Notes under the pieces: model-generated
Seen by the model: the letters and a program-made list of their open reading frames with translations, nothing else
Told to the model about the DNA's origin: nothing
Database searches by the model: none
Shown: in pieces, positions 11,636 to 58,838 of the stretch
Position numbering within the stretch: position 1 is the stretch's first letter
How the letters are laid out: each line of letters begins with the position of its first letter
From: a virus
DNA: 64,000 nucleotides
Reading direction: 5' to 3' (one strand)
Virus record (IMG/VR): IMGVR_UViG_3300045988_058615
Coordinates: 5,350 to 69,349 of that record
Translations under genes and position numbers: made by a program

Positions 11636-13846
11636 TTAATGTATTTGTCTTATTTTGTCATTATATGGATTTCCATCATGAAGCTAAGCCAACTCTATTT
11701 CAGTTCTCTTTTCTTCTATATCCATTTGTCTATCTTTATATGTAGAATCAGATTGAGCTTTGAGCCAGTTAACCTTATATTCTAACTACATTTTCTGCTA
11801 TTCTAATCCTAATCTCTACTCATCCAAACTTTCTATCTTCTACTAAGCTTTCTATAGTTCTTGCTGTAACTGCTATGCCTATTGTGAAGTTTCTTCCAAT
11901 TTTTCCTATAGCTACTATAGCTAATTGTTTTCTTCTTTACGAATCTATACTGCTTTCTTAACCTTATATTTAAGGTCTGTAAGACTCTTAGCAGTTAGTG
12001 CTTCAAATATGATGTCAGGATCCATTTGCTGGCTTTTAACAAACTCTGGAATAATAGCTTTAATAGTTTGTAAATCTTCCATTACTTCAGAGCTAGAAGT
12101 TATATGGATATCATAGTCAGTAACCGTAAAATATTCTGGAAGCGCTGTAAATATCTGCTAGTATTTATCTCCAAGTATAATAGTACCAGTCAATCCTTTC
12201 TTATATGTTATTTTAGCCTAGTTTAGACTATCCAATAATATCTCACAGGTGATTAGGTCCATCTACTAGAAATAATGCTTGGTTACTATGTAAGAGTTAG
12301 TAACACCTTGCTTAATATTAGTTACAGCATCGTGAGTATCTATTCCATTTAATCTTTCTCTAAATACTCCAGTTATAGATGACGTAGTTTGTTCTACTGA
12401 TTGAATTGCTAATTCAATAGCCTATACAGCCTAAGCTTTTAAGGTATCATCAAATCCATTGTATATCTAGTTAGGTGCTTGCGCTCCATCATTTCTCCCT
12501 TCCTAAGTAGAATCAATCCACATGATACCACCCTTCTTGTATGCTAACCATTTCTATACTCTCTCCGGCCACTTTACGCCTAGGTTAGTAGGAAGTAACG
12601 ACATATCCATGATTACACCAGCGGTACCACTATTAGCTATTAGGTTGTCTCTATAATAGTTTAGTAGGTCATATCTATCCTATAGATGCGCACATTTTAA
12701 TATTAAGGAATATGGTTGTTGAGAACGATTTAAGAAATATACCCCATTCACAGATAGAGAACAGAAATTGGGATTGTCTTTTGACCTCATAACAGTCTTA
12801 TCTAGACCTCTAAGGATATATATCTCCTCCCCAATTCTAATTGTGTTATATCTCTGCATTACAAAATCGTCATCAGTTTCTATCCATTCTACGTCATAAA
12901 CTGGAATTAACTAAAATCTGTGAGCACTATATTCATTATCTGGGTATCCAGGAATGGTTTCATGATTCTAATCTTCATTTACTATGGTACAAGTGTCACC
13001 ATAAACTCTTCTATAAACTGCAGCAGAATCATCAGCTCTCCACTCATCTTTTAGTCTTTTCAAATCCTCTCTAGAGATTTCTTTCCCGTACTTAGCTAAT
13101 ATCTAGCTTTTACTCATCCATTTTCTAACTACTACTCTATAAGAATTTCTAACATATGGAGATTCTGGATTTCTATCTACGAAAGTATTCAGGGGATTTA
13201 AAACTTCTATTTCTATGTTAGTTCCAGAAGATGATGATTTTACTCTGAAAAATGTATATCCAGTAATTAATAAATCTGTAAGTAACTATCGGAGTTTAGT
13301 TATTAAATCGGTTTCTCTAGACTGCATAATATAATGAATAATATTCTATGCAGCTATCTCATATTGAGAAATAAAAGACTAATCAATATCTTGAATAATT
13401 TTATCTAACTAAGTCTTCACGGCTTTATCTGTAATATCTTTTCCATCGATAAATTTCAGAATAGAATTACTTAAATGGTCTCTAAGAAATTTAACTATTC
13501 CTTTAGTTATTTCTAACTATTTTTCTCTAGTGATATTACTAATGGTATCTGAATCCTTACAAGAAATCTTCGGAAGGATAGGGGTTCCTAGATATTCCCC
13601 TACTAGAGCATCTACATGCTTTTTTAGTAATGGTGTAAATTCTACAGAAGTAGGACTACCTATTCCGAAGTTTTCTTCCAGGTAACGAAACTATTCTGGG
13701 TCTCTCTTTCCGTTATAGTAATTATAAGCTTTCTATAATTCGTACTTATCATATACAAGCTCCGCAATAGCCTCGTTCGTCTTGTCTATCAGTTCTTTTT
13801 CTTTCATAACATAAATTATGCTGTTCTGGAGGAAGTTTAGTTGCAT
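11636..13846 (-). CDS. Putative portal protein, about 736 aa, TAG-recoded
   Basis: A long reading frame lies directly downstream of TerL. The N-terminus is MQLNFLQ.../MKEKELIDKTNEAIAELVYDKYELQKAYNYY. The C-terminus is a Gln-rich coiled coil, QQLQEKLEETSQQAQQLQQELQKAQQKIESLDEQ, in which every Q is a TAG, then ...HDGNPYNDKIRQIH and a TAA at 11636-11638. Confidence 0.45.
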
Positions 13847-14004: not shown

Positions 14005-16365
14005 TCAAGCCCACCTACGTATTCCATTTTGTACAAGTCTCTCATATAACCTAGGATCACTTGTTTCAATTCTGTATGGGTCATCGTATTCATTTTTTTG
14101 TATGTTAGCTTCAAAAGTCTTAGAAGTTGGTATAACCCCAAATCTTTTGATTCCTCTCTCGTCATAATAATAACCATAATCTTGGAATTGTTCAACTTCT
14201 TTTTCAACAAGCACTGGCTATCTTCCTGACAATTCCTAGTCTGCCAATTCTGTCATTCCTACAGCGGCCACAATATCGAATTTACCTTTATTCTCATCAT
14301 TATATCCAGTAAATTGGTCTAACATTTCTTCAAACCATATAGTATGACAGAAATCCTCAATAAAGGCTGCCGTCAAATCAGTATGTTGTTCTATAATAGT
14401 TTTGGTAGCAGGTGTTCCATACTATTTAGTAGTTCCATTCTTGACGTCTGTTAGAGTAGCTCTAGGTCTTTTCATAAAATAGTTTAAACAGCCTTTTTCC
14501 CTAGCCCATGTAACCATACCCATACGAGTAGCTTCTATGTTTATTCTGCAATTATAGTATCTAGCTAAACACATAGCTATTTTATAGGCTTCTCTGATGT
14601 CGTTAGGTCTGTCTTTATACATAGCAACATACTACGGTTCGTTTAGACCAAATGCTCTTCTTTTTATAGTTATACAGAAATCAGAAGGGTCTCTTGTTTC
14701 TTTTGAAGTTTGACTAGCTCCTATATCAATACCGTCTATTCCTGCAACATATAAATCATGCATTTCTTTGTATGCTGGAGATTCAAATTCTTCTCCCCTT
14801 TCCTCAGCTTCCTATCTAAGTTTATCCATCTACTCTTTATACAAATCAGACCATACAGGATGTTCAAGTATTTTTACTTTTCCGTTAATATTAGGAATCC
14901 ATTTAAAACCATCTATATTATCCTAGGTATGTTTATTGTTTTTATAGAAGTAGTCTATGTATCCAGATTCTGGTCTTGGTCCTATTTTCTTAAGTCTTAT
15001 ATTAGCTAATTGGTCCGCAATAAGAATCTTGTTGAACTTGTTGACACCTTCAAGATTAAATGCTTCTTCCGCATTCCAACATCGTTCAGCACACTTCTTT
15101 AGATAGTCGTCTGGAACTGCTAATAAATTGTCACGCTCTTCCTATAGATACTTTTTATATTCTACTGTATTACATACACCTCTATGGTCCATGTATTCTG
15201 AATTTAGAGACTAGACAAAATATGGAATGAAGAATCCACTTTCAATAGTAGTTCCATCCTGTGTATAATTATGTCTAAACGGAAGAACCTTGTAAGCTTT
15301 TGGATTGTAATATATCTTCTTAAGACCTGCTAATGGAGCACCCATATCACCACCAGTACCTCCAAATAACATTGTTCCACGAGGTTTACCCTGAACTTCG
15401 CAAAGCTCTTGCCCCTGCACTACAGCAGTATCTAGTCCAGGCCAAGACCCTGCTTCATCATATATTAATAAGTCAACACGGTCTCCACGAATATTAGATG
15501 CCTTAGCTCCATTTATTCCAACTACTTCTGATTTAAATCCAACATCCTCAAACTGCCCGTTTACCTTAATCTGTTTACCAGACTTTTTTCTTAAGTCTTG
15601 GTCAATCAAACGTAGTTTGAAGAATCCTCCCCCTGTAGAAGTATTCAAGAATGTTAAAGCATTATCAAACTTACTAAAAGTACCTTTAAGGAAGGTATCA
15701 TTAAAACAAGTAATCATTACTCTGCTTCTTCTGATTACTGAATACATTCTTGCAGATAAGGATGCATTTATTTCAGAGAATCCAATAGAACGAGCTTTCA
15801 TAAGAGCTGCGTGTTTATGCAGAACTCTAGCCATCTACAGATAATGAAAGAACATATAATGAGATGCGAAAAATATAGGAAAGTCACTACTTGTTCCTTC
15901 TCCAGATGCCTTGTTATCATCAATAATAGGAAGCTAGTAGAAGTTTAGGAAGAAATAGTTATCTCCAGTAATTGTATAACCATTAACAGTCATTCCATAT
16001 TTACATCTTCTATACTATTCCTTCCAAAACTCATTATATCTCTTACTATCTTTTAGATATGGACAATACTTTCCAGTTTTTCTATATACTTCTCTGGTCT
16101 CAGTAAACCAATCTGGGTCGAAGTCAAGACCATGTGTTTCATCTATCGGTCTATATCCAGTTATTTCATAAGATAAAGTAGGGTCAAATACCTCTATCTT
16201 GTCTCCTCTTTTTACATCCCAATAATCAGCATTTTTGCCTCTTTCCTCTCTTATCTTCTATACTAGTTCTCTAGCTTCTTTGGCATCCTCTTTTTGTTCT
16301 TTCTCTCTTACCTAATCTACTATATTCTAGATTTCTTCAGGTAATATTTTTTTCTTTCTAGGCAT
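14005..16365 (-). CDS. terL: Terminase large subunit, 786 aa, about 14 in-frame TAG
   Basis: Hand translation runs from the ATG at 16365 to the TGA at 14005-14007. It joins ORF fragments 15211-15834, 14422-14622 and 14005-14214. Walker-B-like VDLLIYDEAG, nuclease-type VAGIDGIDIGASQ, MPRKKKILPEEIQNIV N-terminus. Length is a multiple of 3. Confidence 0.75.
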
Positions 16366-21712: not shown

Positions 21713-21729
21713 AACTATTAATTTTGGCG

Positions 21730-21801
21730 TTGCCCTACTAGGATTCGAACCCAGACTAAATGATTTAGAGTCATCTGTGCTGACCATTACACCATAGGGC
21801 A
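21730..21801 (-). tRNA. Amber-suppressor tRNA(CUA), derived from tRNA-Gln
   Basis: Minus-strand sequence TGCCCTA-TG-GTGT-AATGGTCA-GCAC-A-GATGA-CTCTAAA-TCATT-TAGTC-CTGGG-TTCGAAT-CCTAG-TAGGGCA-A. The acceptor has 7 perfect base pairs, the anticodon loop is CU-CUA-AA, and the D and T arms are nearly identical to tRNA-Gln(UUG) at 33778-33848. Confidence 0.85.
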
Positions 21802-33848: not shown

Positions 33849-34396
33849 CTAAATACAGTCGTTGAGGAGACTCGACCTTGCATACCTAGAGTCGGTAAAG
33901 TCAGCTGAATAAATCCGATGCGGTATTATCCACGAATAATCAAACAGACGTCTACAGAATAGTGGAAGCGAGAGCGCAGAAAGGCTGTATTTTTAATAAT
34001 AAGTATTATCGGTAAGACTATAATATTTAAGTGTCAATCAATAAGTGCTTATGCTTAATATAACTTCTTTCAACATTGGAGAGATAACTAGTAAAGTATC
34101 TCTAAATACTCCCAGTAGCGGAATAATCCAGAGGTCTCATCCTAGAAGTAAATTCGTAAGATTTCATTCTAGGTCTTCTATGTCAGAATATGCATTCTCT
34201 AGCAGGCCAAGACTAGGTAAGGATGAACCGGAAATTGTGGTGTTGCAGATTATGGTATTTGGCAATGATGAATTGCTAGTTGAATATGTCTGCAAACAGG
34301 AACTAACAGTAGAATAGGTTATTAGACCGGTAAATAACCTTCCGTAGCCAGTCGGACGTTGGAAGCTTATAGTCCTACGATAGTGAGACTAAATCT

Positions 34397-35132: not shown

Positions 35133-35540
35133 ATGGGTTACCAGTATTTTGGATTGTTTTTAAATGAACATAATAGGAATGAGCTTATGAAAATCATTTT
35201 TGCTAATCCTATTATAGCTAATCTGGTCCTTCAAAGAGGAAGTACTTTATATCTAGACCATTGTACTCTACTCCACAAAAATCAAAACGACAAAGAGATA
35301 TATGACTCTCTTATAAAGAAGATTGATGAATCATGGATGATAGAAGTAAATGGAATAGGTTTCTCTAACAAAGCAATAGCTTTTAGAGTTACTATACCAG
35401 ACTTGCCTTGTGCAAATGCAAAACCACATATTACTATTTGCACAATCAATGGAGGAAAACCAGTTGATAGCAATGGGATATGTGAGTGGATTCCTATTCC
35501 TAAACTCAACATTTGTTGTGAACTAAAATTAGTGAAATAA
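35133..35540 (+). CDS. 2H phosphoesterase superfamily protein (LigT-like 2',3'-cyclic phosphodiesterase / RNA-repair type), 135 aa
   Basis: Two H-x-T-x motifs, LDHCTLLH and KPHITICT, in the characteristic tandem arrangement. Confidence 0.5.
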   Translation: MGYQYFGLFLNEHNRNELMKIIFANPIIANLVLQRGSTLYLDHCTLLHKNQNDKEIYDSLIKKIDESWMIEVNGIGFSNKAIAFRVTIPDLPCANAKPHITICTINGGKPVDSNGICEWIPIPKLNICCELKLVK

Positions 35541-36075: not shown

Positions 36076-36091
36076 CAAATTTTATTCGATT

Positions 36092-36250
36092 ATGAAAGAG
36101 TTAAGTGAAATTATTCAAGAATTAGTAGTCAGTAGCAATTCCATGAATCAAATTGATTCAAAAACTGCTATACAGTATGTTGTGGAGGCTTACGAAGCTG
36201 GAATGGATAAGGCTAAAGAACTTACCAAATACAGTGGAGAACTTTATTAA
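36092..36250 (+). CDS. Small protein, 52 aa
   Basis: MKELSEIIQELVVSSNSMNQIDSKTAIQYVVEAYEAGMDKAKELTKYSGELY, followed by a terminator hairpin. Confidence 0.35.
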   Translation: MKELSEIIQELVVSSNSMNQIDSKTAIQYVVEAYEAGMDKAKELTKYSGELY

Positions 36251-36251
36251 C

Positions 36252-36275
36252 TGAATGTTCAGAACATTCATATTA
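36252..36275 (+). terminator. Intrinsic terminator-like hairpin
   Basis: TGAATGTT-CAGA-AACATTCA followed by TATT. Confidence 0.5.
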
Positions 36276-36297
36276 AATAACAATTAAAAATAAAGAA

Positions 36298-37482
36298 ATG
36301 AACAAAGTTTGGATGTGTTCTGAGTCTACATACACCCAAGTAGGCTCAGGTTACAAGGTTTCGGAATCTCTTCCGGTTGGTATTTACAGTATTAGTCTGA
36401 CAAGGACAGGTTATCACCTGGATAGGTATGCAGACAAGTTCGTATTTCCGTACAAGATGTATGGACTGCAGGAAGATTTTATAGACCATGTAATCAAAAC
36501 TTATAATAACACAGAAGGAAACTTGGGAATCATGCTTACTGGTACAAAAGGTACTGGAAAGACTGTCACGGCTAAAGAATTAGCTAATAAGTTGAACCTT
36601 CCTGTTATTATCGTGAAGGATATGGGAGACCATAATCAATCCATGATTGAGTTTCTTTCTGGCATTGAGGGAGACTGTATTCTCTTCCTAGACGAGTTTG
36701 AAAAGAACTTCAACGAATCAGATTCTACAATCCTCCAAATTATGGATGGAGTTTATAACTCTAAGTATCGTAAGGTATTCTTGTTGACTACCAATGCAAT
36801 GTCCGTCAACGAGAATATGGTAGGACGTCCATCTAGAATCCGCTACGTCAAGAAGTTCGAAAATCTCGATTTGAAGGTTGTAAACGAATATCTAGACGAT
36901 GCCTTGGAGGTTCCGGAAGCACGTCAAGATCTGCTTGACTTCATTGATTCTTTGACTATATCAACCATTGATATTCTCAAAACTATAGTTAATGAAGTTA
37001 ACATTCATGGAATTGAGGGTTTGAGAAAGGCTAAGAGTTTCTTCAACGTAGTAACTAATGAGTATGAGTATTCTTGCATCAGAGGTTATGCTTACACTGG
37101 GGAAATTGAACACGACAAGAATAAGTTCTCTATTGGAAACTTCTTCAAGGCTGTTGAGAGATTTAATAATCCTATACCTAAGCCTATTGTTGACGATGAG
37201 GATAACTGTACTATAGAGGAAAGAAAAGCCCTCAACGAATACTATGAGTATCGTCGTCATAGCTTCCACAGCTTGTCGTATACCTTTATCTATTCTTCTA
37301 CCAAGTTCAGCAATCTTAAGGTAGGAGACGATTTCTACAATGATGAGATTATCGCTATTGACAAGAAGTTGAATGTTATTGTTACTAAGGACGGTAGCGA
37401 AATTAACTACTATTGGATTAAAGATCCTAACAGTAAACCCTCTCTGTATCGTACAGGAAGATACGATTCTTTGGTACTTTAA
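36298..37482 (+). CDS. AAA+ ATPase, 394 aa
   Basis: Walker A GTKGTGKT and Walker B ILFLDEFE. Confidence 0.7.
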   Translation: MNKVWMCSESTYTQVGSGYKVSESLPVGIYSISLTRTGYHLDRYADKFVFPYKMYGLQEDFIDHVIKTYNNTEGNLGIMLTGTKGTGKTVTAKELANKLNLPVIIVKDMGDHNQSMIEFLSGIEGDCILFLDEFEKNFNESDSTILQIMDGVYNSKYRKVFLLTTNAMSVNENMVGRPSRIRYVKKFENLDLKVVNEYLDDALEVPEARQDLLDFIDSLTISTIDILKTIVNEVNIHGIEGLRKAKSFFNVVTNEYEYSCIRGYAYTGEIEHDKNKFSIGNFFKAVERFNNPIPKPIVDDEDNCTIEERKALNEYYEYRRHSFHSLSYTFIYSSTKFSNLKVGDDFYNDEIIAIDKKLNVIVTKDGSEINYYWIKDPNSKPSLYRTGRYDSLVL

Positions 37483-38033: not shown

Positions 38034-38395
38034 TTATGGATAAATACATTAACGGAAATTTAATAAGGAGGATACTAGTTTTTAAAACTAGAAAACATCC
38101 AGAATGGAAGCATAAAATAGCAGACACTAAATTCTTATTCTGGAAAAGACATATTGACTATTGGTATCTTCTAGACCCATGCTTTGGGACTTACTCTGAG
38201 AAAGGGATGCTCGAATCAATTAGTAAGAGAGAATCTTTCTACAAGGATGGAATAGTGTACCAGAAGCCGCATATTATTCTAGAGTTTTCGGAGAGACATG
38301 ATGAGTCTATCTATTTTGATAGTGATGAAGAAATGGAAGGCTGGTTTGAGTCTTTCAAGCAAGAATTTGGAAAACCATTTATTTATATAGAATAA
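38024..38395 (+). CDS. Hypothetical protein, 123 aa
   Basis: ORF. Confidence 0.45.
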   Translation: MGLIMDKYINGNLIRRILVFKTRKHPEWKHKIADTKFLFWKRHIDYWYLLDPCFGTYSEKGMLESISKRESFYKDGIVYQKPHIILEFSERHDESIYFDSDEEMEGWFESFKQEFGKPFIYIE

Positions 38396-38497
38396 TACCT
38401 TTATCCCAGTTTAGAGCTTAGCTCAAGTAGTGAAGAACAGTAGCTATTGGTTAAAACGAGGTGGAGTGCCAGACGAAAGACTGGAATTAACATAGTT

Positions 38498-38505
38498 TAA
38501 CTTTG
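38498..38505 (+). promoter_or_regulatory. Bacteroidota sigma-A -7-like element TAnnTTTG (TAACTTTG)
   Basis: The motif GTTTAACTTTGAAT lies 12 nt upstream of the ATG at 38517. The same 13-mer recurs at 48350-48364. Confidence 0.3.
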
Positions 38506-38516
38506 AATCTCCGACT

Positions 38517-38858
38517 ATGCGGAGTATTATTATGGCAGAATTGATTTTCTTACCTAATGGAAAATGCGATTTGAAATTTCATGCTAACATCAAAAACTAT
38601 AAAAGAGTTGAGATTGTGAAGCATAAGAAGAACTTCTTCAAGGTCTATGTGGACCGCAACGATAGCGTTTATGACGTGAAACGGTGCGAAGTCATCGCTT
38701 GGAAGACCATAGAGAGAGGGAAAAGAAAGGTGAATGTTCCTGACAAGGTTGACGAGGTACGCGATGTACATCTGTTTGACAAAACTAAAGGAAATCCGTT
38801 CAAGATTGCGGTTACTAAAATAATCGGCGAGATGGAGGCACAGGAACTACTATCTTAA
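38517..38858 (+). CDS. Hypothetical protein, 113 aa
   Basis: ORF. Confidence 0.45.
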   Translation: MRSIIMAELIFLPNGKCDLKFHANIKNYKRVEIVKHKKNFFKVYVDRNDSVYDVKRCEVIAWKTIERGKRKVNVPDKVDEVRDVHLFDKTKGNPFKIAVTKIIGEMEAQELLS

Positions 38859-39053: not shown

Positions 39054-39138
39054 TCCGATTTAGCTCAGCTGGCAGAGCGCCCACAGCTATAATAATTACA
39101 TCGGTGGGAGGTCAGGGGTTCAAATCCTTTAATCGGAA
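39054..39138 (+). tRNA. tRNA-like gene with a 19-nt anticodon loop (identity unknown; expanded loop or mini-insertion)
   Basis: Acceptor TCCGATT/AATCGGA is perfect, the D arm GCTC-AGCTGGCA-GAGC is canonical, and the T arm is AGGGG-TTCAAAT-CCTTT. The anticodon stem CCCAC/GTGGG encloses AGCTATAATAATTACATCG. Confidence 0.4.
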
Positions 39139-39322: not shown

Positions 39323-39564
39323 CGAAAACTCCTTTTGTGGCTCTGAATTAGATTAATTATTAACAATTTTAAACTTTGATGTTATGAAAAAGGTAATTAA
39401 TGTTGTGAAGAAAGCTGCTAAGTGGTATTTTGAACAAAGTTCTAAGAGCTACATATGGTTAGTTTCTGGAACTATTCCACCTCCCTATAGAGGTCTTGAG
39501 TGAGAAATACTACTAAAAGGTAAGTACCAAAGGGGTACTTATCTACGCCTGTGGAGAAAATTAA

Positions 39565-39651
39565 TTGTATGGTTAGCCAAGTGGCCGACGGCAGCGGGCT
39601 GTTAACCCGTCGTGAGAAATCCCATCGCAGGTTCGAATCCTGCACCATACG
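39565..39651 (+). tRNA. tRNA-like with GTT anticodon (Asn?) and an unusually long 16-nt variable region
   Basis: GTATGGT/ACCATAC acceptor, GCAGG-TTCGAAT-CCTGC T arm, GCGGG-CTGTTAA-CCCGT anticodon arm, and an unpaired 16-nt stretch CGTGAGAAATCCCATC. Confidence 0.4.
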
Positions 39652-40311
39652 CCTTTTTGCTGAACCCTCCTTGTAATATTAATCCAGCAAATTCCAAGTC
39701 GATGTGAGGAAGAGAGTAACTTGGACGGTAGCTAGCACTGTAGTACGCAATAGTGGGATAGAAACGGCTAGCACCCACTAACTTTTAAATACTAGATTAT
39801 GCATCAGTGTGATTATTGTTGTTGGTATTACAATGGAAATTGCGATTGTCCATATGTAATGAAGAAACAAGCGTGTGAAAACGCTTTGAAAACTAAAGAG
39901 AGAAATGAAAGACCTATTAGAAAAGTACAAAATGTTTCAGACTCCGAAACTAGCTAATGAGACTTCATGGAAAGACATGAAGGAATTTAACTCTTATATG
40001 AAAGAAGTAGTTCGTGATTATAAGATTAAACAGGCTAAATCAATTCAGAGTGCTAGAAACGTAATAATATCCTGACCTGGCAAGGTAAAAATCCATTCGG
40101 GGTTTAAGTTGAAGCCAGTCCCTGCGGAATCATAAAGACCTTTTCTGACACGAGAACCGATAGTCGATGAACTGAGAGAGTAGTATGGTTGCGGACTTAT
40201 GCTACTAGAACATGATTCAAACAAAAAACTTATCTGGTGTTGTTAAGTTGTGGAATCTTAACAGTGGAAATTTATGGGTATGTCACCAATTAAAAAGAAA
40301 ATCCCAAAAAT

Positions 40312-40384
40312 GGGCCGTTAGCTCAAATGGCTAGAGCGCTGGTTTTGCACACCGGAAGATAGGGTTCGAGTCCCTGCGTGTCCA
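40312..40384 (+). tRNA. tRNA-Ala(TGC)-like with poorly paired acceptor stem (possible pseudogene)
   Basis: GCTC-AAATGGCTA-GAGC-G-CTGGT-TTTGCAC-ACCGG...TAGGG-TTCGAGT-CCCTG. Acceptor GGGCCGT vs CGTGTCC pairs only 4 of 7. Confidence 0.35.
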
Positions 40385-40404
40385 CAAACTTTATTTAAAA
40401 AATT

Positions 40405-40590
40405 ATGAAAGTATATGTAGTTGTAGTAAATCATCACCCAGCTAACGCTCCTCAAAATTATGAAACTGATTGTCAAATCTTCTTAGACAAGAAACAGGCA
40501 GAGAAGTATAAAGAGGCTAAGGAAAAAGAGTTTCCTATTAGATGGGGAGGAGAGTATAATCATTGTAAACTAATTAAAAAGCATTTGTAA
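40405..40590 (+). CDS. Small protein, 61 aa
   Basis: ORF. Confidence 0.35.
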   Translation: MKVYVVVVNHHPANAPQNYETDCQIFLDKKQAEKYKEAKEKEFPIRWGGEYNHCKLIKKHL

Positions 40591-41154: not shown

Positions 41155-41701
41155 GGGCCTACTTGGATTTGACAGGCGATTACAAATTATAAGGACGTGT
41201 AGAGCGCAATCTCTTTAAACGACGAAAACAAATAACTGCAGAAATTGCACCTGTAAGAATGGCAGCCTAAGCTGCTGGCTTATTAATAGACACTATTAAT
41301 CAAGTCGGGTTACTGGAGAGACCTAGAAACAGAAGAGGTTAGGTGTATCGCTAATGGCGTGCGGACGATAATCCGTGGTATATCTTTAATCAGAACACTC
41401 TAAGAGTTAGTAAGACTGAATCTCCATTGTCTTTAAACAGAAGGGATGCGTGGTTGACTCACCACAAACACTCGTTTTCCTACTTTAGCGTTAAAAAGTA
41501 GGTGGTGGAAGAATGACTTCGGTCAGCCCCTAGTTTGGTGGTTTGTAAACTAGTTTCTGGAACTCCGATAGTGTAGTTTAGAGTAAGTCTAGTAAAACTA
41601 TCTAAATGCTAGAACTCACTAGCTGATGTAATAAAAATGAGACGCACGTTATCCTTGTAATAAGGGTTGTTTGGACACGGGTTCGACTCCCGTTAGGTCC
41701 A
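41155..41701 (+). ncRNA. ssrA: tmRNA-like (ssrA) gene, about 547 nt
   Basis: The 5' end GGGCCTACTTGGATTTGACAGGCGATT matches the E. coli pattern GGGGCTGATTCTGGATTCGACGGGATT. The 3' end GGAC-ACGGG-TTCGACT-CCCGT-TAGGTCC-A matches GGAC-GCGGG-TTCAACT-CCCGC-CAGCTCC-A. The acceptor GGGCCTA/TAGGTCC carries G3·U70. Internally, TAGAGC-GCA-ATC...AAACGACGAAAAC matches the E. coli TAGTC-GCA-AACGACGAAAAC resume region. Confidence 0.75.
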
Positions 41702-41789
41702 CACTCTTTGTAGCAATTCCTGGCACGGGAAGTGTCCTGATATAAAGACGCTTGTAAATGTGCACTTGCATGGTGATACAAAGAGAAAT

Positions 41790-41863
41790 AGGGCTATAGC
41801 TCAACTGGTTAGAGCACCACACTGATAATGTGGAGGTTATCAGTTCAAGTCTGATTAGCCCTA
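41790..41863 (+). tRNA. tRNA-Ile(GAT), second copy
   Basis: AGGGCTA-TA-GCTC-AACTGGTTA-GAGC-A-CCACA-CTGATAA-TGTGG-AGGTT-ATCAG-TTCAAGT-CTGAT-TAGCCCT-A. Confidence 0.8.
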
Positions 41864-42031: not shown

Positions 42032-42583
42032 GTGAATAGAGAACAATCTCTTAAATTGTATTATGAGAATCCTAACCACTGTAAGGAATGTGGTAAGGTA
42101 ATCGAAGTACTAGATAATCAGAGGGTCGCAGATGTAAGGAAGAAACAATTTTGTAGTCATTCGTGTGCTGCTTCCTATAATAACAAAGGTAGAACAAAAC
42201 ACGATGAAAACAAGATATGTCCTAGATGTGGTAAACCTAAGCACAAAGATTCAGAAATGTGTCGTAGTTGCTGGGAAGAACTTAATGGGATTGGCAACAA
42301 AACATTAGGTTATTATACATCTGGTCAGAAGTACTTATCATCTAAATGTCAAGAAATAAGGACTAATGCTCGTAAAGTATTAGAAAGTTCCGAACGTGAG
42401 AAAGTATGTCAATATTGTCATAATCACGAATTTGATGCAATACTTGAAGTACACCATCTTAAAGGAATACTAGAGTTTGACGAAGACACTCTTATTAAAG
42501 AGATTAACAATGAGAATAATTTAGTATGGTTATGTCCTAATCACCATATTATGTTAGAGAAAGGTTTAATTAGTCTGGAGTAA
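42032..42583 (+). CDS. HNH homing endonuclease with N-terminal zinc fingers, 183 aa
   Basis: ...EVHHLKG...NLVWLCPNHH (HNH motif) and several CxxC pairs. Confidence 0.7.
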   Translation: MNREQSLKLYYENPNHCKECGKVIEVLDNQRVADVRKKQFCSHSCAASYNNKGRTKHDENKICPRCGKPKHKDSEMCRSCWEELNGIGNKTLGYYTSGQKYLSSKCQEIRTNARKVLESSEREKVCQYCHNHEFDAILEVHHLKGILEFDEDTLIKEINNENNLVWLCPNHHIMLEKGLISLE

Positions 42584-42947: not shown

Positions 42948-43619
42948 ATGACTAGATTAGAAAAGTATTTAATAGCAACAGCTTCTGAAATTATAGAAGC
43001 AGAAACTACAGTTTCTCGTTATTTTGTTATAGGTAACGTAAAGATAAGGGTTTCAGATCACTGGGGAAAGAACAGTGATGCAGATTTGCACGTTCTTGTT
43101 CCTTATAATGGAGGAACTAAGTATATCGTAACTATCAAGGATAGTCCAGGAAAATTCCTTATCTGGAACGCTAATCAAATTAAAGAGTTCATTCCGTCAT
43201 TGCAGATAATGAAAGGACTTAAAGAGGCCATAACCACCTCTCCAAAGCCGAAAGATTCTGCTGTACAAAAAATTCAATTAGCTCTGAATAACACATCAAC
43301 TGATGGAAGCTCTTTGGAGTTTGACGGAACTATTATCGAATCCAGATTGAAGGAAAAGCAACTTACCTCTAAACAAAGAGAAGTTCTAAGAAGACCTAAA
43401 TCAACCTGGGATATTTCTCAGATTGGAACATTACCTAGTATGGTTAAGGTAGATTTAGGATTAAGTAATGGTTCAATAAACGAAGATGTACAAATTTTCC
43501 TGACTTGTACTTCTTTGACTTATGCCGAGTTTTTGAACATTTATAAGATAATAGTGGTAGATAATCATAAAACTCCTACCATTAAGTTATTGCAAGAGGC
43601 TCATAGTCTAATTGCATAG
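42948..43619 (+). CDS. Hypothetical protein, 223 aa
   Basis: ORF. Confidence 0.5.
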   Translation: MTRLEKYLIATASEIIEAETTVSRYFVIGNVKIRVSDHWGKNSDADLHVLVPYNGGTKYIVTIKDSPGKFLIWNANQIKEFIPSLQIMKGLKEAITTSPKPKDSAVQKIQLALNNTSTDGSSLEFDGTIIESRLKEKQLTSKQREVLRRPKSTWDISQIGTLPSMVKVDLGLSNGSINEDVQIFLTCTSLTYAEFLNIYKIIVVDNHKTPTIKLLQEAHSLIA

Positions 43620-43626
43620 CTATGAT

Positions 43627-48457: not shown

Positions 48458-48542
48458 GCCCGGATGGTGGAATTGGTAGACACGTCAGATTTAAGCTCTG
48501 ATGCCCATTGAGGGCGTGTGGGTTCGAGTCCCACTTCGGGTA
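48458..48542 (+). tRNA. tRNA-Leu(TAA)
   Basis: GCCCGGA-TG-GTGGAATTGGTAGACAC-G-TCAGA-TTTAAGC-TCTGA; variable arm TGCCCATTGAGGGCGT; GTGGG-TTCGAGT-CCCAC-TTCGGGT-A. Confidence 0.8.
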
Positions 48543-48629
48543 GAAGCACAAGATTGAAACCTCCACGTGGTGTGTTTTGGGTAAAGCTAATTCAATCAAT
48601 TATTAATAATGTTATAAACAGTTTGTGAT

Positions 48630-49265
48630 ATGGGATATATCTATTGCATTACAAATATTATCAACAATAAAAGATACGTTGGTAAAACCCTCTTTACTAT
48701 ATAGGAAAGATTTTAGGAACACTGCAAGGATTCTCAAAAAGAGAGATGTGATAAAAGACCTCTCTATGATGCTATGAATAAATATGGAGTTGAAAACTTT
48801 ATAGTAGAGGAATTAGAATATGTAAAGGACGAAAACATACTCTCAGAAAGAGAGGTATATTGGATAAAAGAGTTGGAAACTTATGGCTCCAAAGGCTATA
48901 ATGCTACTAAGGGTGGGGACGGAACATAGTTATATGATTATCAAGAGATAATCGAACTGTACAATATGGGATATACTTGCAAAAAAGTTGCAGAGAAAGT
49001 GGGATGTAGTGATGATACTGTAAGAAAAGTATTGAAAGCTCATGACATTAAAATCAGAGGCGGGTCTGCTAAGAAAATCGATCAATTTGATATGGCTGGC
49101 AATTATATATAGCACTTCTGGGGAAGAGAGGAAGCAGCTCAATGGCTTGTAGATAATGGTCTAGCAAGAACTGTTAATTGCAAAAGACATATCACTGATT
49201 GTTGCAATCATAAAATAACCCATGCTTATGGCTACATATGGAAGTATGCCGTACTTCCAGAGTAA
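48630..49265 (+). CDS. GIY-YIG homing endonuclease, 211 aa, with 4 in-frame TAG
   Basis: MGYIYCITNIINNKRYVGKTLFTI[Q]ERF[Q]EHC...YDAMNKYGVENFIVEELEYV...REVYWIKELETYGSKGYNATKGGDGT[Q]LYDYQEIIELYNMGYTCKKVAEKVGCSDDTVRKVLK...AGNYI[Q]HFWG...THAYGYIWKYAVLPE and a TAA. GIY-YIG core plus a C-terminal DNA-binding region. Length is a multiple of 3. Confidence 0.65.
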
Positions 49266-49284
49266 TGCCACTTCGGGTACTATA

Positions 49285-53929: not shown

Positions 53930-54170
53930 AGTACAAGAAGAAAGTAGCTTGGTTAAAATCAAAGCAAGCATGGTGGGATAAACAAGGTAAAGATTTTCAG
54001 GCCGCAACTACTAGACCTGGGTCTATTAAAACTCGATAAGTCATGGTTGCATTTATAATTGTGTGCGTAATATTCGTTGCATATATTTATTATGACCCAT
54101 ATGTAGACATTACAGAAGACAATGTGTTACTATGGTATAATAAAAGCGGCAACAGAGGATATATTATTCT

Positions 54171-54383
54171 ATGGTCGAGAAAAACTTAATCAAGGCATTC
54201 ATTGCCGTTCTGTTAATCGTTGTGATTTACAACGTCAGCTTATGGTTATTATCCGAATCATTATATGCTGCAAATATCTTGGGGTTGTTACTATTATTAG
54301 TGGCAATCCCAAGTTTAGTTTATAGGATATTCAAGTATATTAAGAAACATTATTTAAATAAGGAAAATGAAGACAATTATTAA
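54171..54383 (+). CDS. Small membrane protein, 70 aa
   Basis: Two hydrophobic helices. Confidence 0.4.
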   Translation: MVEKNLIKAFIAVLLIVVIYNVSLWLLSESLYAANILGLLLLLVAIPSLVYRIFKYIKKHYLNKENEDNY

Positions 54384-56055: not shown

Positions 56056-57618
56056 ATGGAAATAATTAATGCAACAGATGGATATAAATTAGGCCATCAC
56101 AGAATGTATCCAGAAGGTACTGAACAGGTTTATAGTAACTGGACTCCTAGAAGTAACAAATACTTTCCAGAAGCCACTGAAGGTTCTGTAGTATTCGGAA
56201 TCCAATATTTAATTAAGAAGTATCTGATTGATGAATTTAATCAGAATTTCTTTGGATTACCTAAAGAAAAGGCTATAGAAATGTTTTATCGGAGAGTCCA
56301 TAATTTCGTGGGAATTGAATCTGTAGGATATAGACATATTGAAGCTCTATATGATTTGGGTTATCTTCCCATTCGCATTAAAGCATTGCCAGAAGGTTCA
56401 GTATGTCCTATTAGGGTTCCCATGATGACTATTACTAATACAAAATCAGAGTTCTTTTGGTTAACTAATTATCTAGAAACTTTAATTAGTTGCACTCTGT
56501 GGATGCCCTGTACTTCTGCTACTAGAGCAAGACTCTATAAGAAAGAACTTAAGAGACATGCAATACGTACCGGATTTCCAGAAGACGTTAATTTGGATTT
56601 CTTGTGCCATGACTTCTCTATGAGGGGAATGGCTGGTTTGGAGGCTGCTATCATCTCTGGCATGGCACATATGACGTCATTTGTTGGGAGTGAGACCATT
56701 CCAGCTATTGCTGCTCTAGAAGAGTATTATGGTGCAAATTCTGACAATGAATTAATTGCTGCTACTGTTCCGGCTACAGAACATTCTGTAATGTGTGCAG
56801 GCGGGGAAGAAGATGAACTTCAAACCTTCAAACGATTGATTAATGAATTGTATCCATCTGGCTTCGTTTCTATAGTTTCTGATACTTGGGACTTCTGGAA
56901 TGTTATCGAGAACTTCCTTCCCAAATTAAAGAAGGATATTATGGCACGTGATGGGCGTGTAGTTATTCGTCCAGATAGCGGAGACCCTGTTGATATTATT
57001 TGTGGTTTGAGAACTAATCCTCATTTCCACACTAGAATGAAAGAGGGTAAATATTATTGTTGCTATGCCCCATTTAATGATGATGCTGAGTATGTAGAAG
57101 TTTCAGAAGGTCAATACTATGGTGCTTATTATATGCTCGGTAAGATTTTTGGATGGAATACTACTTCCAAGGATTATCGCTATCCTAGCACTAAAATAGG
57201 TTTGTTGTACGGAGATTCCATCACTCTGGAAAGACAGAAGCAGATCTATTTGAGACTTGAGAATGCTCATATGGCCGCTTGTAATCTTGTTCTTGGTGTT
57301 GGCTCATTTTCATATCAATATGCAAGTAGAGATAGCTTAGGCTTTGCAATCAAAGCTACTGCCTGTGTGGTTAATGGAGAATTGAAAGAAATATTCAAAC
57401 ATCCTAAAACAGATGATGGAACTAAAAATTCTCTTAAAGGTCTAATTGCTGTCTATCAGGACGTTAATGGCGTTTACTATGCTGAAGACCAGGTAACTCC
57501 TGAGGTAGAAAGTGGAGGCTGTTTAGAGACTGTGTTCGAAGATGGTGTCCTTAAAAAGGAGTACACTCTTAAAGAAATTAGACAGCGGATTAATGAAGGG
57601 CTTTATGGAAAGTTTTAA
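56056..57618 (+). CDS. nadV: Nicotinamide phosphoribosyltransferase (NadV/NAMPT), 520 aa
   Basis: The NAMPT signature is co-linear: TDGYKLGHH...IKALPEGSV...FFWLTNYLETL...LCHDFSMRG...TVPATEHSVM...VSIVSDTWDFWN...IRPDSGDP...LYGDSIT. Confidence 0.8.
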   Translation: MEIINATDGYKLGHHRMYPEGTEQVYSNWTPRSNKYFPEATEGSVVFGIQYLIKKYLIDEFNQNFFGLPKEKAIEMFYRRVHNFVGIESVGYRHIEALYDLGYLPIRIKALPEGSVCPIRVPMMTITNTKSEFFWLTNYLETLISCTLWMPCTSATRARLYKKELKRHAIRTGFPEDVNLDFLCHDFSMRGMAGLEAAIISGMAHMTSFVGSETIPAIAALEEYYGANSDNELIAATVPATEHSVMCAGGEEDELQTFKRLINELYPSGFVSIVSDTWDFWNVIENFLPKLKKDIMARDGRVVIRPDSGDPVDIICGLRTNPHFHTRMKEGKYYCCYAPFNDDAEYVEVSEGQYYGAYYMLGKIFGWNTTSKDYRYPSTKIGLLYGDSITLERQKQIYLRLENAHMAACNLVLGVGSFSYQYASRDSLGFAIKATACVVNGELKEIFKHPKTDDGTKNSLKGLIAVYQDVNGVYYAEDQVTPEVESGGCLETVFEDGVLKKEYTLKEIRQRINEGLYGKF

Positions 57619-58033
57619 CCATCCATTTGGAAAAGAGGCTTGCAAGAAGCGATTATTAGAAGAGTACAAGAAATATGGAAAGCTAATAGTCGCTTTCGAT
57701 TATGATAACACTATTTTTGACTACCATAATAATGGAGGAGACTATAGTTGTGTTATTAACCTATTGAGGCGCTGTACTATGTTGGGTTTTGAAATGATTT
57801 TATTCTCTACTGAGGAAGATGAAGATAAAATTATAGAAAAACAAGTGGAGTGTGTTCAAATGAGAATAGGAAACCTTGTTAATGGCATGATTATACCTCC
57901 TTTTACAAGCAGTAGGCTATTTCCAAATTCTAAAAAGTCTTATTATAATATCCTATTGGATGATAGAGCGGGCTTGGAAGAAAGTTACGAAATTTTAAAA
58001 TATGTTGTAGATGAAATTATTAAACTTAATTAA
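57609..58033 (+). CDS. HAD-family hydrolase, about 141 aa (internal start chosen)
   Basis: MESFNHPFGK...LIVAFDYDNTIFD carries the DxDxT motif I. ORF 57542.. overlaps the nadV end. Confidence 0.45.
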
Positions 58034-58823
58034 CTTGGACAAGAGTGAGATTAAGTATAACCTCACTAGATTTCCTGATGGAGAACCTCAGGTAAGTTTT
58101 CCTGACGAATTTGATAGGAAAGATTCAGTAAAGGTTATATGTAGAATTACTTCTGCTGAAGAATTATTTATTCTAACTCAAGTCGGAGACATTCTTGATA
58201 GACAAGAGATTGAGTGGGATTTGTTTATTAGCTATCTAATGTCTATGCGTATGGATAGAGTAATGAGCTTTAACCGCCCGTTTTCTCTAAAGGTGGTTTG
58301 TAGTATCTTGAATACTATGAACTATCGTTGTGTTATGATTTTGGAACCCCATTCGGAAAGAACTAAGGGATTGTTAGGAACTAGATGTTGCCCTCAAAAG
58401 TTTAACTTTGAATCGCATCTGGATATTCAATCTAATGTTGTATTCCCAGATGCTGGGGCTTACCAAAGGTACAAAAGTCTCTCTAATAATTGGGGACATA
58501 TTACATTCAATAAGGTGAGAGATTTGGAGACTGGTAAGATTAAAGAATTTTCCATTGGAAGAGAGGTTAATTGTTATTATCCGACCTTTACTTTTATTGA
58601 TGATTTGTGCGATGCTGGAGGAACGTTTCTTGGAGAGCTTAAAGTTCTTAAAGAAAGATATCCTGATGCTAAGTACGAGATTATGGTTTGTCATGCTGTA
58701 AATATTAAAGGTTTGGTAAACCTATGTAACAATTTTGATCGTGTTATAATAACTAATTCGTATTGTGATTACGGATATAAGCCTAGTAATAATAATTTAA
58801 CAGTGATAGATGTATGTGGATAG
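58011..58823 (+). CDS. prs: Ribose-phosphate pyrophosphokinase (PRPP synthetase), 270 aa
   Basis: RFPDGEPQV..., VFPDAGA..R and IDDLCDAGGT are the Prs signatures. Confidence 0.65.
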   Translation: MKLLNLINLDKSEIKYNLTRFPDGEPQVSFPDEFDRKDSVKVICRITSAEELFILTQVGDILDRQEIEWDLFISYLMSMRMDRVMSFNRPFSLKVVCSILNTMNYRCVMILEPHSERTKGLLGTRCCPQKFNFESHLDIQSNVVFPDAGAYQRYKSLSNNWGHITFNKVRDLETGKIKEFSIGREVNCYYPTFTFIDDLCDAGGTFLGELKVLKERYPDAKYEIMVCHAVNIKGLVNLCNNFDRVIITNSYCDYGYKPSNNNLTVIDVCG

Positions 58824-58838
58824 TAATTCAAAAAAGAG

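Follow-up and report, generated by a model that had tools for sequence, protein, structure and literature searches.

The 64-kb window analysed here, that is the whole stretch of 64,000 nucleotides from positions 5,350 to 69,349 of the IMG/VR virus record IMGVR_UViG_3300045988_058615, contains an inserted unit of 737 bp (48543-49279) directly behind an intact tRNA-Leu(UAA) gene. The unit consists of a minimal theta ribozyme of the hepatitis delta virus (HDV)-like type, an open reading frame (ORF) for a GIY-YIG homing endonuclease with four in-frame TAG (amber) codons, and a 12-nt repeat of the tRNA tail. We interpret it, with the functional steps proposed below, as a composite mobile cassette, and give this interpretation a probability of about 0.7. 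A first-pass annotation of the same DNA had pointed to a four-TAG GIY-YIG homing endonuclease beside tRNA-Leu, made late through the amber suppressor; the gene is confirmed as an intact frame of 211 codons, free of TAA and TGA, while two features had been missed, a ribozyme within the 86 nt that separate tRNA-Leu from the ORF and a target duplication of 12 nt. The idea of late translation is plausible and not new (it has a precedent in Borges et al.), and tRNA clusters are known as endonuclease targets (T4 SegB); what is new is the composite element of tRNA 3' end, theta ribozyme, amber-containing GIY-YIG endonuclease and target duplication. The locus is composed as follows, in window coordinates.

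48458-48542, plus strand: tRNA-Leu(UAA), intact, no encoded CCA (Rfam 54.5 bits, ARAGORN)
48531-48542, plus strand: left 12-nt direct repeat CCACTTCGGGTA, the tRNA 3' end, single copy in empty-site genomes
48543-48597, plus strand: minimal HDV-like theta ribozyme, by Rfam RF02682, segment parse, covariation and published descriptor
48598-48629, plus strand: mRNA leader of the endonuclease, 32 nt, AT-rich
48630-49265, plus strand: GIY-YIG homing endonuclease ORF, 211 codons, ATG at 48630, TAA at 49263-49265
49268-49279, plus strand: right 12-nt direct repeat CCACTTCGGGTA, two bases past the ORF stop codon
49297-49461, plus strand: small downstream ORF, 54 aa (MERYIKELVE...), starting 17 nt past the repeat, the original neighbour of the tRNA

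Insertion site and empty sites

The last base of tRNA-Leu(UAA), 48542, is the insertion point of the cassette. Related loci (L numbers) were fetched with the downstream 304-aa protein and their segments compared by blastn. Empty sites are found in at least 10 genomes (L076, L077, L078, L082, L085, L092-L095 and L097), with the order 103-aa ORF, tRNA-Leu, small ORF, 304-aa ORF and nothing inserted. In L076 and L077 the flanks are 96-100% identical to the window, the tRNA-Leu(UAA) is 100% identical, and the cassette is absent. Junction alignments show that past the right repeat the window rejoins the empty-site sequence (CTATAAAATG...) base for base. In the cassette carriers L001, L087, L088, L090 and L091, the flanks are 72-85% identical to the window and the spacer and ORF 96-97%; L080 is a recombinant at the element, with a frameshifted ORF. 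Ribozyme, ORF and repeat are gained or lost jointly, every empty site being without both ribozyme and ORF. Comparison of presence and absence across relatives, which the first-pass annotation had proposed, thus gives the pattern expected of a homing element, as judged from the alignments, and the window seems to have acquired its cassette recently, on a background of the L076 type.

A chimeric metagenome join across a conserved tRNA could also place a cassette at this position, and the left junction does lie within tRNA sequence that is common to strains. The right junction, however, shares only 12 nt, too short to mislead an assembler, and the window cassette has substitutions of its own (~20 in respect to L001/L004/L005, 21-22 in respect to L006/L007). 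Several independent contigs also carry the cassette at the same site, and an assembly artefact is considered extremely improbable.

Direct repeats of the 11-17 nt preceding the cleavage site were found at 7 of the 19 unique loci that bear an endonuclease and at none of the 73 that bear the ribozyme only, and a reversed-sequence control for flanking repeats gave zero hits. The duplicated segments begin in the T-loop, and the insertions are at tRNA and tmRNA (transfer-messenger RNA) 3' ends. The deletion derivative L132 has its repeat at +195; this remnant (L132:8282) retains only the ribozyme, the last ~31 codons and a 17-nt repeat. Other decay products of the cassette are an endonuclease fused in frame with the downstream 225-aa gene (L054:6001-7146) and a copy that breaks off at codon 147 and continues into the middle of the 304-aa gene (L011/L098). 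Reverse transcriptase and transposase are absent, and an RNA-mediated or transposase-like origin of the 12-17-nt duplications was considered and is unsupported.

The ribozyme in the spacer

The ribozyme begins one base after the tRNA end (in Rfam the tRNA ends at 48542 and the ribozyme starts at 48543). From the 5' side it reads P1 GAAGCAC, J1/2 AA, P2 GATTGAA, P3 ACC, L3 TCCACGT and P3' GGT, followed by P1' GTGTTTT, P1.1 GG, P4 GTAAAG, J4/2 CTAA and P2' TTCAATC. The presumed catalytic C is C48587, the first position of J4/2, and cleavage is predicted between A48542 and G48543. The layout is identical to rows of the published theta table, P1-AA-P2-ACC-T-CC-ACGT-GGT-P1'-GG-GTAACG-CTAA-P2' (Kienbeck et al. 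2024, PMC10879173), and the segment layout, the conserved nucleotides, the cleavage site at tRNA +1 and the setting in a code-15 gut Caudoviricetes phage are all shared with the published theta ribozymes.

In the paralogues, the first ~55 nt after the tRNA conserve the pattern and not the sequence: two 7-nt helices with compensatory changes are pseudoknotted around the invariant core ACCUCCACGUGG and the motif GGGUAAnGCUAA, and 18 of 18 parsed copies pair. For the covariation analysis, 87 distinct ribozyme sequences were collected by a core-motif scan of IMG/VR; anchored fixed-length segments were used, as a MAFFT alignment of full ribozymes misaligned the helices. The P1/P2/P3 cells are paired in 98.7% of cases, compared to 58.8% in shuffles and 38-50% in slid registers. 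Double substitutions are seen at 13 of 16 pairs overall and at 12 of the 13 pairs of P1 and P2. A perfect 6-bp P2 is formed in 86% of the observed sequences and in 20% of shuffled 3' tails. The first, closing pair is G1.U in 66 of the 87 sequences, a hallmark of HDV, and the start of P1 coincides with the independently predicted tRNA end in 59 copies.

Two points speak against the assignment. The end-to-end match to RF02682 (HDV-F-prausnitzii) reaches 28.5 bits (E 0.005, local search), below the gathering score of 44, and the helix registers behind the covariation count were partly chosen by complementarity. The low Rfam score results from P4, which is reduced from 15 nt to 1. No theta-named family is among the Rfam matches of the window, and with the score below gathering the element is filed by descriptor and covariation and not by Rfam membership. 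By its layout, conserved nucleotides, covariation and tRNA +1 position, the spacer element is a minimal theta ribozyme, with self-scission predicted. Four theta representatives were found to self-cleave in vitro (Kienbeck et al. 2024, PMC10879173), and the general tRNA association of theta ribozymes and their link to code 15 are published as well, single theta ribozymes adjoining tRNAs of up to 13 isotypes (PMC10879173). The exact ribozyme of the window was not found in the searched part of the Kienbeck supplements.

The amber-containing endonuclease

The first-pass annotation had started the gene at 48458, which is the first base of tRNA-Leu(UAA); the ORF runs from 48630. Its in-frame TAG triplets (48702-04, 48714-16, 48927-29 and 49110-12) are codons 25, 29, 100 and 161, and in the standard code they split it into 5 pieces. 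There is no TAA or TGA within the 211 codons, a length that none of 100,000 base shuffles of the ORF kept free of both, and the probability that all four in-frame stops are TAG is ~0.008.

For protein searches TAG was translated as Q, as the first-pass annotation had advised. The Pfam GIY-YIG domain (PF01541) is found with 44.5 bits (E 1.9e-11, cut-off 22.6) in residues 1-91, spanning codons 25 and 29. It is followed in residues 103-137 by helix-turn-helix matches (HTH_28, 26.5 bits, cut-off 25; HTH_7, 25.2 bits, cut-off 23.8). The alignment to PHROG 314, 'homing endonuclease', covers residues 1-206 and includes all four TAG codons. These matches bear out the earlier claim that the GIY-YIG core and the C-terminal region depend on TAG as sense. 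The closest solved structure is the catalytic domain of I-TevI (1mk0/1ln0, E 3.5e-9). Residues R27, E75, Y5, Y16 (the GIY/YVG tyrosines), H31 and N91 are identical to I-TevI in the alignment, the counterparts of R27 and E75 being the two residues mutated in the I-TevI crystal forms. The C-terminal conserved region ends ..AYGYIWKY. In agreement with the family, the protein has a catalytic domain and a separate DNA-binding module, and its presence is sporadic, with conservation above that of the flanks. Judged by these comparisons, the ORF is an intact GIY-YIG homing endonuclease of the I-TevI/SegB type that requires TAG as sense. An intron-encoded origin of the group I type was rejected: the ORF is intergenic, tRNA-Leu is uninterrupted, and no Rfam intron was found even at permissive thresholds.

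The family alignment indicates that TAG is decoded as Gln in the endonuclease. In five related genomes the gene occupies this same site and has kept all four TAG codons, and a large family of paralogues is found in IMG/VR, in related genomes of 183-193 kb. Paralogues that are 50-64% identical contain 2-6 in-frame TAG codons, at differing positions, and TAA or TGA only in the decayed copies L011, L032 and L038. TAG and Gln exchange in both directions, paralogues having CAA/CAG at TAG positions of the window and TAG at its Gln positions. In this test, which covers the endonuclease family only, Gln makes up 10.2% of the residues in TAG columns compared to 2.5% overall (e.g. columns 227 and 237), and the remaining residues are mainly Glu, Lys and Arg. 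The informative pairs give a ratio of nonsynonymous to synonymous substitution rates (dN/dS) of 0.09-0.25, with the frame almost wholly downstream of the first TAG. The reading as Gln rests on the TAG/Gln swaps, on the dN/dS values and on a suppressor tRNA of the window that resembles tRNA-Gln.

If the TAG codons were true stops, the ORF would be a decaying remnant without a product. Homing endonuclease genes do decay often, as the truncated or frameshifted relatives L011, L032, L038 and L132 (the known decayed copies) illustrate, and the standard-code reading into five pieces would fit. However, all four interruptions are TAG although the TAA trinucleotide is the commoner one (1,973 vs 1,324 over all frames, at 36% GC); the catalytic residues are intact, the low dN/dS extends over the whole frame, the paralogues have TAG as their only stop at other positions and exchange it with Gln, and the late genes of the same genome use TAG alike. 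The shared TAG positions, the dN/dS values and the TAG/Gln exchange make a pseudogene very unlikely, and this reading was rejected, contradicted by the TAG-only stops, the dN/dS and the catalytic residues. Purifying selection acts on the endonuclease ORF, which is intact and can be read only if TAG is a sense codon.

Ribozyme-endonuclease units in related genomes

Paralogues of the endonuclease are located 72-88 nt after the tRNAs Leu-UAA, Leu-UAG, Met, Pro, Thr and Cys, and one lies behind a suppressor tRNA at +147. The unit of ribozyme and ORF recurs behind at least 8 different tRNAs and tmRNA, the latter being present in the window:

41155-41704, plus strand: tmRNA (Rfam 74.6 bits)

In L007, L014, L030 and L031, the cassette is found right after the tRNA-like 3' end of tmRNA and before tRNA-Ile. 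The window has the empty tmRNA site (41704-41790), and the flanking matches in the relatives overlap by ~12-16 nt. Relatives carry paralogous cassettes at tRNA-Pro(UGG) (L025/L039), tRNA-Leu(UAG) (L008-L012) and tRNA-Met(CAU) (L002/L015), where the window has short gaps on the plus strand (26761-26971, 36076-36298 and 39323-39567, respectively), so that it has empty sites after these three tRNAs as well. The earlier view of the tRNA array as an endonuclease target zone is supported by the positions of the paralogues, which lie behind Leu, Met, Pro, Thr, Cys and suppressor tRNAs and tmRNA.

Among 108 ribozymes that were collected by ribozyme sequence, 30 are directly followed by a GIY-YIG ORF of the family (23 of 59 when tRNA-adjacent, 17 of 82 unique sequences). 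The link between ribozyme and endonuclease is strong and not exclusive. A theta ribozyme was also seen behind tRNA-Pro in L047:7332 (plus strand) with a different 189-aa ORF after it, which has CxxC zinc-finger-like motifs and zero TAG; judged from this sequence, the ribozyme slot may host other endonuclease types.

Several observations weigh against the cassette interpretation. Behind 78 of the 108 sampled ribozymes of the subtype (72%) there is no endonuclease, which means that the ribozyme is not exclusively a part of the cassette and may have been captured. Some members of the endonuclease family are without a ribozyme (the tRNA-Cys +19 and tRNA-Met +18 types). Classical double-strand-break homing does not account for the 12-17-nt duplications. 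Finally, we infer co-transcription, ribozyme activity, suppressor timing and the enzyme target site from sequence.

The first of these points would suit an origin from independent parts, in which the ribozyme is a 3'-processing device of the tRNA gene and the endonuclease landed downstream of an existing unit. Such an origin is also compatible with the in vitro self-cleavage and the general tRNA association (Kienbeck et al., PMC10879173). It is, however, unlikely in view of the tRNA-Leu locus, where the empty-site relatives have neither ribozyme nor ORF, the breaks fall at the tRNA end and at the 12-nt repeat, and the flanking repeats enclose ribozyme and ORF jointly. It also does not agree with the recurrence of the whole unit behind at least 8 tRNAs and tmRNA, nor with the single ribozyme copy among the ~30 tRNA genes of the window, from which we conclude that the ribozyme here belongs to the cassette and not to tRNA genes generally. 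No HDV-like match was found by Rfam in the window scan behind the suppressor tRNA(CUA) (21729-21801).

Genome setting and codon regime

The window has a guanine-cytosine (GC) content of 35.6% and two blocks of opposite strand and codon usage. In-frame TAG is abundant in the minus-strand block (1-17.5 kb), and the plus-strand block (~25-64 kb) is almost without it. The features that anchor this setting are as follows.

11636-13846, minus strand: portal, PHROG portal match, inside the TAG-rich block
14005-16365, minus strand: large terminase (TerL), PHROG terminase match, crAss-like identity, inside the TAG-rich block
21729-21801, minus strand: amber suppressor tRNA(CUA), by ARAGORN and Rfam, heading the minus-strand module
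42032-42583, plus strand: HNH endonuclease ORF, GTG start, in the tRNA array (HNH_2, 21.9 bits, cut-off 21)

The late minus-strand genes have 148 TAG in 5,379 codons (TAG share of TAG+CAA+CAG, 0.56), while 38 curated plus-strand ORFs have 1 TAG in 7,986 codons (share 0.005), which agrees with the earlier statement that the surrounding genes use the standard code; the sole TAG sits 3 codons before a TAA and is probably a real stop. The GIY-YIG ORF has 4 TAG in 211 codons (share 0.50, 4/8) and is the only gene with internal TAG codons across the 38-kb plus-strand block. It is coded as the late genes are, yet embedded in a code-neutral block. TAG density in the neighbour genes at the paralogue loci was 0.41 vs 1.58 per 100 codons, a noisy comparison that includes spurious ORF frames and gives weak support. 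Candidates for further recoded plus-strand genes (23836-24216, 27451-27735, 34051-34386, 38247-38858, 40185-40445 and 54092-54343) were rejected, the translations being non-gene-like or the TAG upstream of the likely start.

About 30 tRNA genes were found in the window by ARAGORN and Rfam (27 by ARAGORN alone), nearly all in the plus-strand block; two plus-strand ones (39054-39138 and 40312-40384) come from Rfam only and are unlisted by ARAGORN. The phage tRNA closest to the suppressor tRNA(CUA) is tRNA-Gln(UUG). A Gln-type suppressor, TAG-rich late genes and a TAG-free early block, as expected of code 15 (TAG=Gln, recoded late genes), are all present. TerL is 26-29% identical to crAss-like terminases. 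These identities, the relatives of 183-193 kb, the 27 tRNAs and the amber suppression fit the table for the Zeta crAss-like group, which lists genome size, many tRNAs and amber suppression (PMC12386605). The host genome is a TAG-to-Gln recoded phage, distantly crAss-like and probably of the Zeta group. Near-identical genomes of Zeta crAss-like phages are reported to vary in endonuclease content.

Two plus-strand ORFs (42948-43625 and 58002-58826) end with TAG and have TAA at once or two codons on (43616-43625 and 58818-58826). The TAG is probably the true stop of both and the TAA a back-up stop, the protein being nearly identical under both codes; back-up TAA after a TAG stop is a habit described in Zeta crAss-like phages (PMC12386605). 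The window also codes for a nicotinamide phosphoribosyltransferase homologue, an auxiliary NAD-salvage gene (56056-57618, plus strand; PHROG 448, E 2.5e-182). Between the two gene blocks, on the plus strand, there are a RAGATH-14 RNA (23975-24170, Rfam 150.7 bits, gathering score 149.1), an adjoining odd tRNA-like gene to which ARAGORN gives a 4-nt anticodon (gcag; 24202-24274), and a sub-threshold hammerhead match (24388-24474; RAGATH-1-hammerhead 33.6 bits, Hammerhead_3 26.6 bits). This region (23975-24474) may be a second ribozyme-associated locus.

Amber codons as a possible timing lock

The dependence of the full-length endonuclease on the suppressor is close to certain. In a standard-code host, translation would halt at codon 25, giving a 24-residue peptide without R27 and E75; active enzyme would be made only while the suppressor tRNA(CUA) works, that is under the same translational regime as the late structural genes. 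The need for the suppressor in the timing scheme of the first-pass annotation therefore follows logically, and TAG as an evolved timer is only suggested. As an alternative to timing, acquisition from a recoded relative had been offered; acquisition stands, and the either/or does not, since late-type codon usage was also carried.

The chance that the TAG codons are a selected, adaptive lock is put at roughly even odds. In 16 of the 17 distinct TAG patterns of the family, TAG occurs within the first 36 codons, compared to 7.9 expected for uniform placement, and at least 7 different N-terminal positions are used. A stop this early avoids making a nuclease domain without a DNA-binding domain. This enrichment is inflated by shared ancestry, leaving ~7 independent N-terminal sites. 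The lock is weakened further by the HNH endonuclease, whose match is real and weak: with 6 Gln codons and zero TAG in the same array, it indicates that late gating is no general need of endonucleases here, and that recoding is not a general property of them in this array. The first-pass annotation had cited this ORF as a second endonuclease of the tRNA array, which holds at 21.9 against 21 bits. The TAG share in the GIY-YIG gene, moreover, is merely late-gene-like.

The amber codons might instead be neutral, present in a functional cassette that circulates among recoded phages, drifted from CAG/CAA and regulating nothing that is selected; they would persist since the enzyme has no use unless the suppressor is present together with replicating DNA. 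The TAG positions do vary among paralogues, and the TAG share (0.44-0.50) is near the 0.56 of the late genes, as at mutational equilibrium. All close relatives are recoded, relatives in standard-code contigs have zero TAG and function without it, and the nearby HNH gene has none. What does not fit neutrality is the position of TAG in codons 1-36, before or inside the catalytic core, in 16 of 17 patterns, and the 38 neighbours, which purged TAG under the same mutation pressure; this contrast argues for maintenance by selection on expression time. Neutral tolerance is possible and, on this balance, somewhat doubtful.

Proposed mechanism

Under the cassette interpretation, the unit would have no promoter of its own and would be transcribed together with tRNA-Leu. 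A sigma-70 promoter and intrinsic terminator scan, to which Bacteroidota/crAss-type promoters were outside, found no such site between tRNA-Leu and the ATG, and the spacer is filled by ribozyme and leader, which makes co-transcription probable. Cleavage by the ribozyme between A48542 and G48543 would end the tRNA at its discriminator base with a 2',3'-cyclic phosphate and, by the same cut, free an endonuclease mRNA with a 5'-OH. The insertion would thereby be harmless to the tRNA, as the group I intron is to td in T4. A 135-aa ORF in the tRNA array (35133-35537, plus strand) scores above the Pfam cut-off for PF08302 (E 1.6e-7), the 2',3'-cyclic phosphodiesterase domain of fungal tRNA ligase, and its product could remove the cyclic phosphate left on the tRNA 3' end.

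In a mixed infection, by analogy to SegB, the enzyme would cut tRNA loci free of the endonuclease, probably in or near the T-arm; this position is suggested by the SegB site, which holds the T-psi-C stem-loop, and by the duplicated segments, which start in the T-loop. Repair would then copy the cassette in. The tRNA 3' repeat possibly serves as a short right-hand homology or annealing site in synthesis-dependent repair, a speculation that would fit the sharp junctions in the window.

Minimum free energy (MFE) folding of 48543-48640, a method with pseudoknots outside its reach, pairs AUGUUAUAAA with UUUGUGAUAU (48609-48632, plus strand) and thereby extends over the first two bases of the start codon of the endonuclease. 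This hairpin over the AUG lacks statistical support (z-score 0.53). In T4, the start regions of endonuclease mRNAs are sequestered by hairpins of which it is reminiscent.

Theta ribozymes in general could, at least in part, be the 5' module of a selfish homing-endonuclease cassette that targets tRNA and tmRNA 3' ends; we hold this tentatively, at somewhat less than an even chance. The ribozyme would then do for the endonuclease what the group I intron does for I-TevI, the duplicated tRNA tail would be a built-in homology arm, and the amber codons would lock the nuclease to the late phase.

Comparison with known systems

The closest setting is that of T4 SegB, a GIY-YIG enzyme in a tRNA cluster whose 27-bp recognition site includes the T-psi-C stem-loop (Brok-Volchanskaya et al. 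2008, PMC2330249). Both enzymes are free-standing GIY-YIG proteins, intergenic in a phage tRNA array and absent from close relatives; SegB is without ribozyme, tRNA-end duplication and recoded codons. The likeness to SegB is one of family and setting, the closest solved match being I-TevI. T4 endonucleases, I-TevI included, are translated late from early/middle transcripts, and for SegB this is attributed to the arrangement of promoter and ribosome-binding-site (RBS) hairpin (PMC2988022). Suppressor gating would reproduce the late restriction that T4 obtains by RBS hairpins for I-TevI and SegB, and the presumed co-transcription resembles the promoter-less seg and mob cassettes of T4. With I-TevI and its group I intron the window cassette shares a homologous catalytic domain and the alliance of a selfish endonuclease with a ribozyme that removes the insertion cost at the RNA level. 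In contrast to the intron, it is inserted behind the gene and not within it, and its ribozyme only cleaves, without splicing or joining of exons.

Late gating has been proposed for an endonuclease of Agate phages that is encoded by a group I intron and TGA-recoded (Borges et al., bioRxiv 10.1101/2021.08.26.457843). Location in the early region, in-frame reassigned stops and a proposed block until late infection are common to both cases. The Agate endonuclease is TGA-to-Trp recoded, encoded by an intron within an early gene and paired with a group I ribozyme, whereas the window gene is TAG-to-Gln recoded, free-standing behind a tRNA, paired with an HDV-like ribozyme and part of a whole multi-site family. 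The Borges et al. study has reportedly been published in Nat Microbiol (2022).

R2 is a site-specific element in a structural RNA gene; it is co-transcribed with it, and an HDV-like ribozyme at the 5' junction releases the element RNA. Such 5' ribozymes of R2 and other retrotransposons are said to have been described by Eickbush & Eickbush in 2010 and by Ruminski et al. in 2011. Insertion in a structural RNA gene, presumed co-transcription and a 5'-junction HDV-like ribozyme are the points of likeness with the window cassette. R2, however, is a eukaryotic retroelement with a reverse transcriptase; the cassette has none, and its mobility is presumably DNA-based homing.

Theta ribozymes have been interpreted as processing the 3' trailers of tRNAs, in connection with the code switch and above all behind suppressor tRNAs (PMC10879173), and in genomes with suppressor-associated theta ribozymes they are found behind 85% of the suppressor tRNAs (Kienbeck et al., PMC10879173). 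The window differs in that its suppressor is without a ribozyme and its sole ribozyme is in a mobile endonuclease cassette. The main text of Kienbeck et al. has no mention of endonucleases, homing or GIY-YIG, and ORFs were called there with code 11 (PMC10879173), which would fragment TAG-containing endonuclease ORFs. In the literature searched, we did not find theta ribozymes connected to homing endonucleases; a single paper there has both 'HDV-like ribozyme' and 'homing endonuclease', and its subject is R2 retrotransposons.

Implications

The 737-bp element unites stop-codon recoding as a translational clock, homing endonucleases of tRNA clusters and tRNA-adjacent theta ribozymes. As calling with code 11 hides such endonucleases, studies that surveyed the context of ribozymes in recoded phages probably took these ORFs for non-coding DNA. 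If the cassette model is true, the endonuclease, as a single gene within early-type, TAG-free surroundings, is a clean natural test of expression gated by the code. Mobility would then explain the tRNA association and the isotype promiscuity of theta ribozymes: a mobile cassette would yield single theta ribozymes at up to 13 isotypes, which would recast their proposed role in the code switch. Next to group I/II introns and R2-type HDV ribozymes, the cassette would also be the third case in which a ribozyme and a mobile element have independently become allied.

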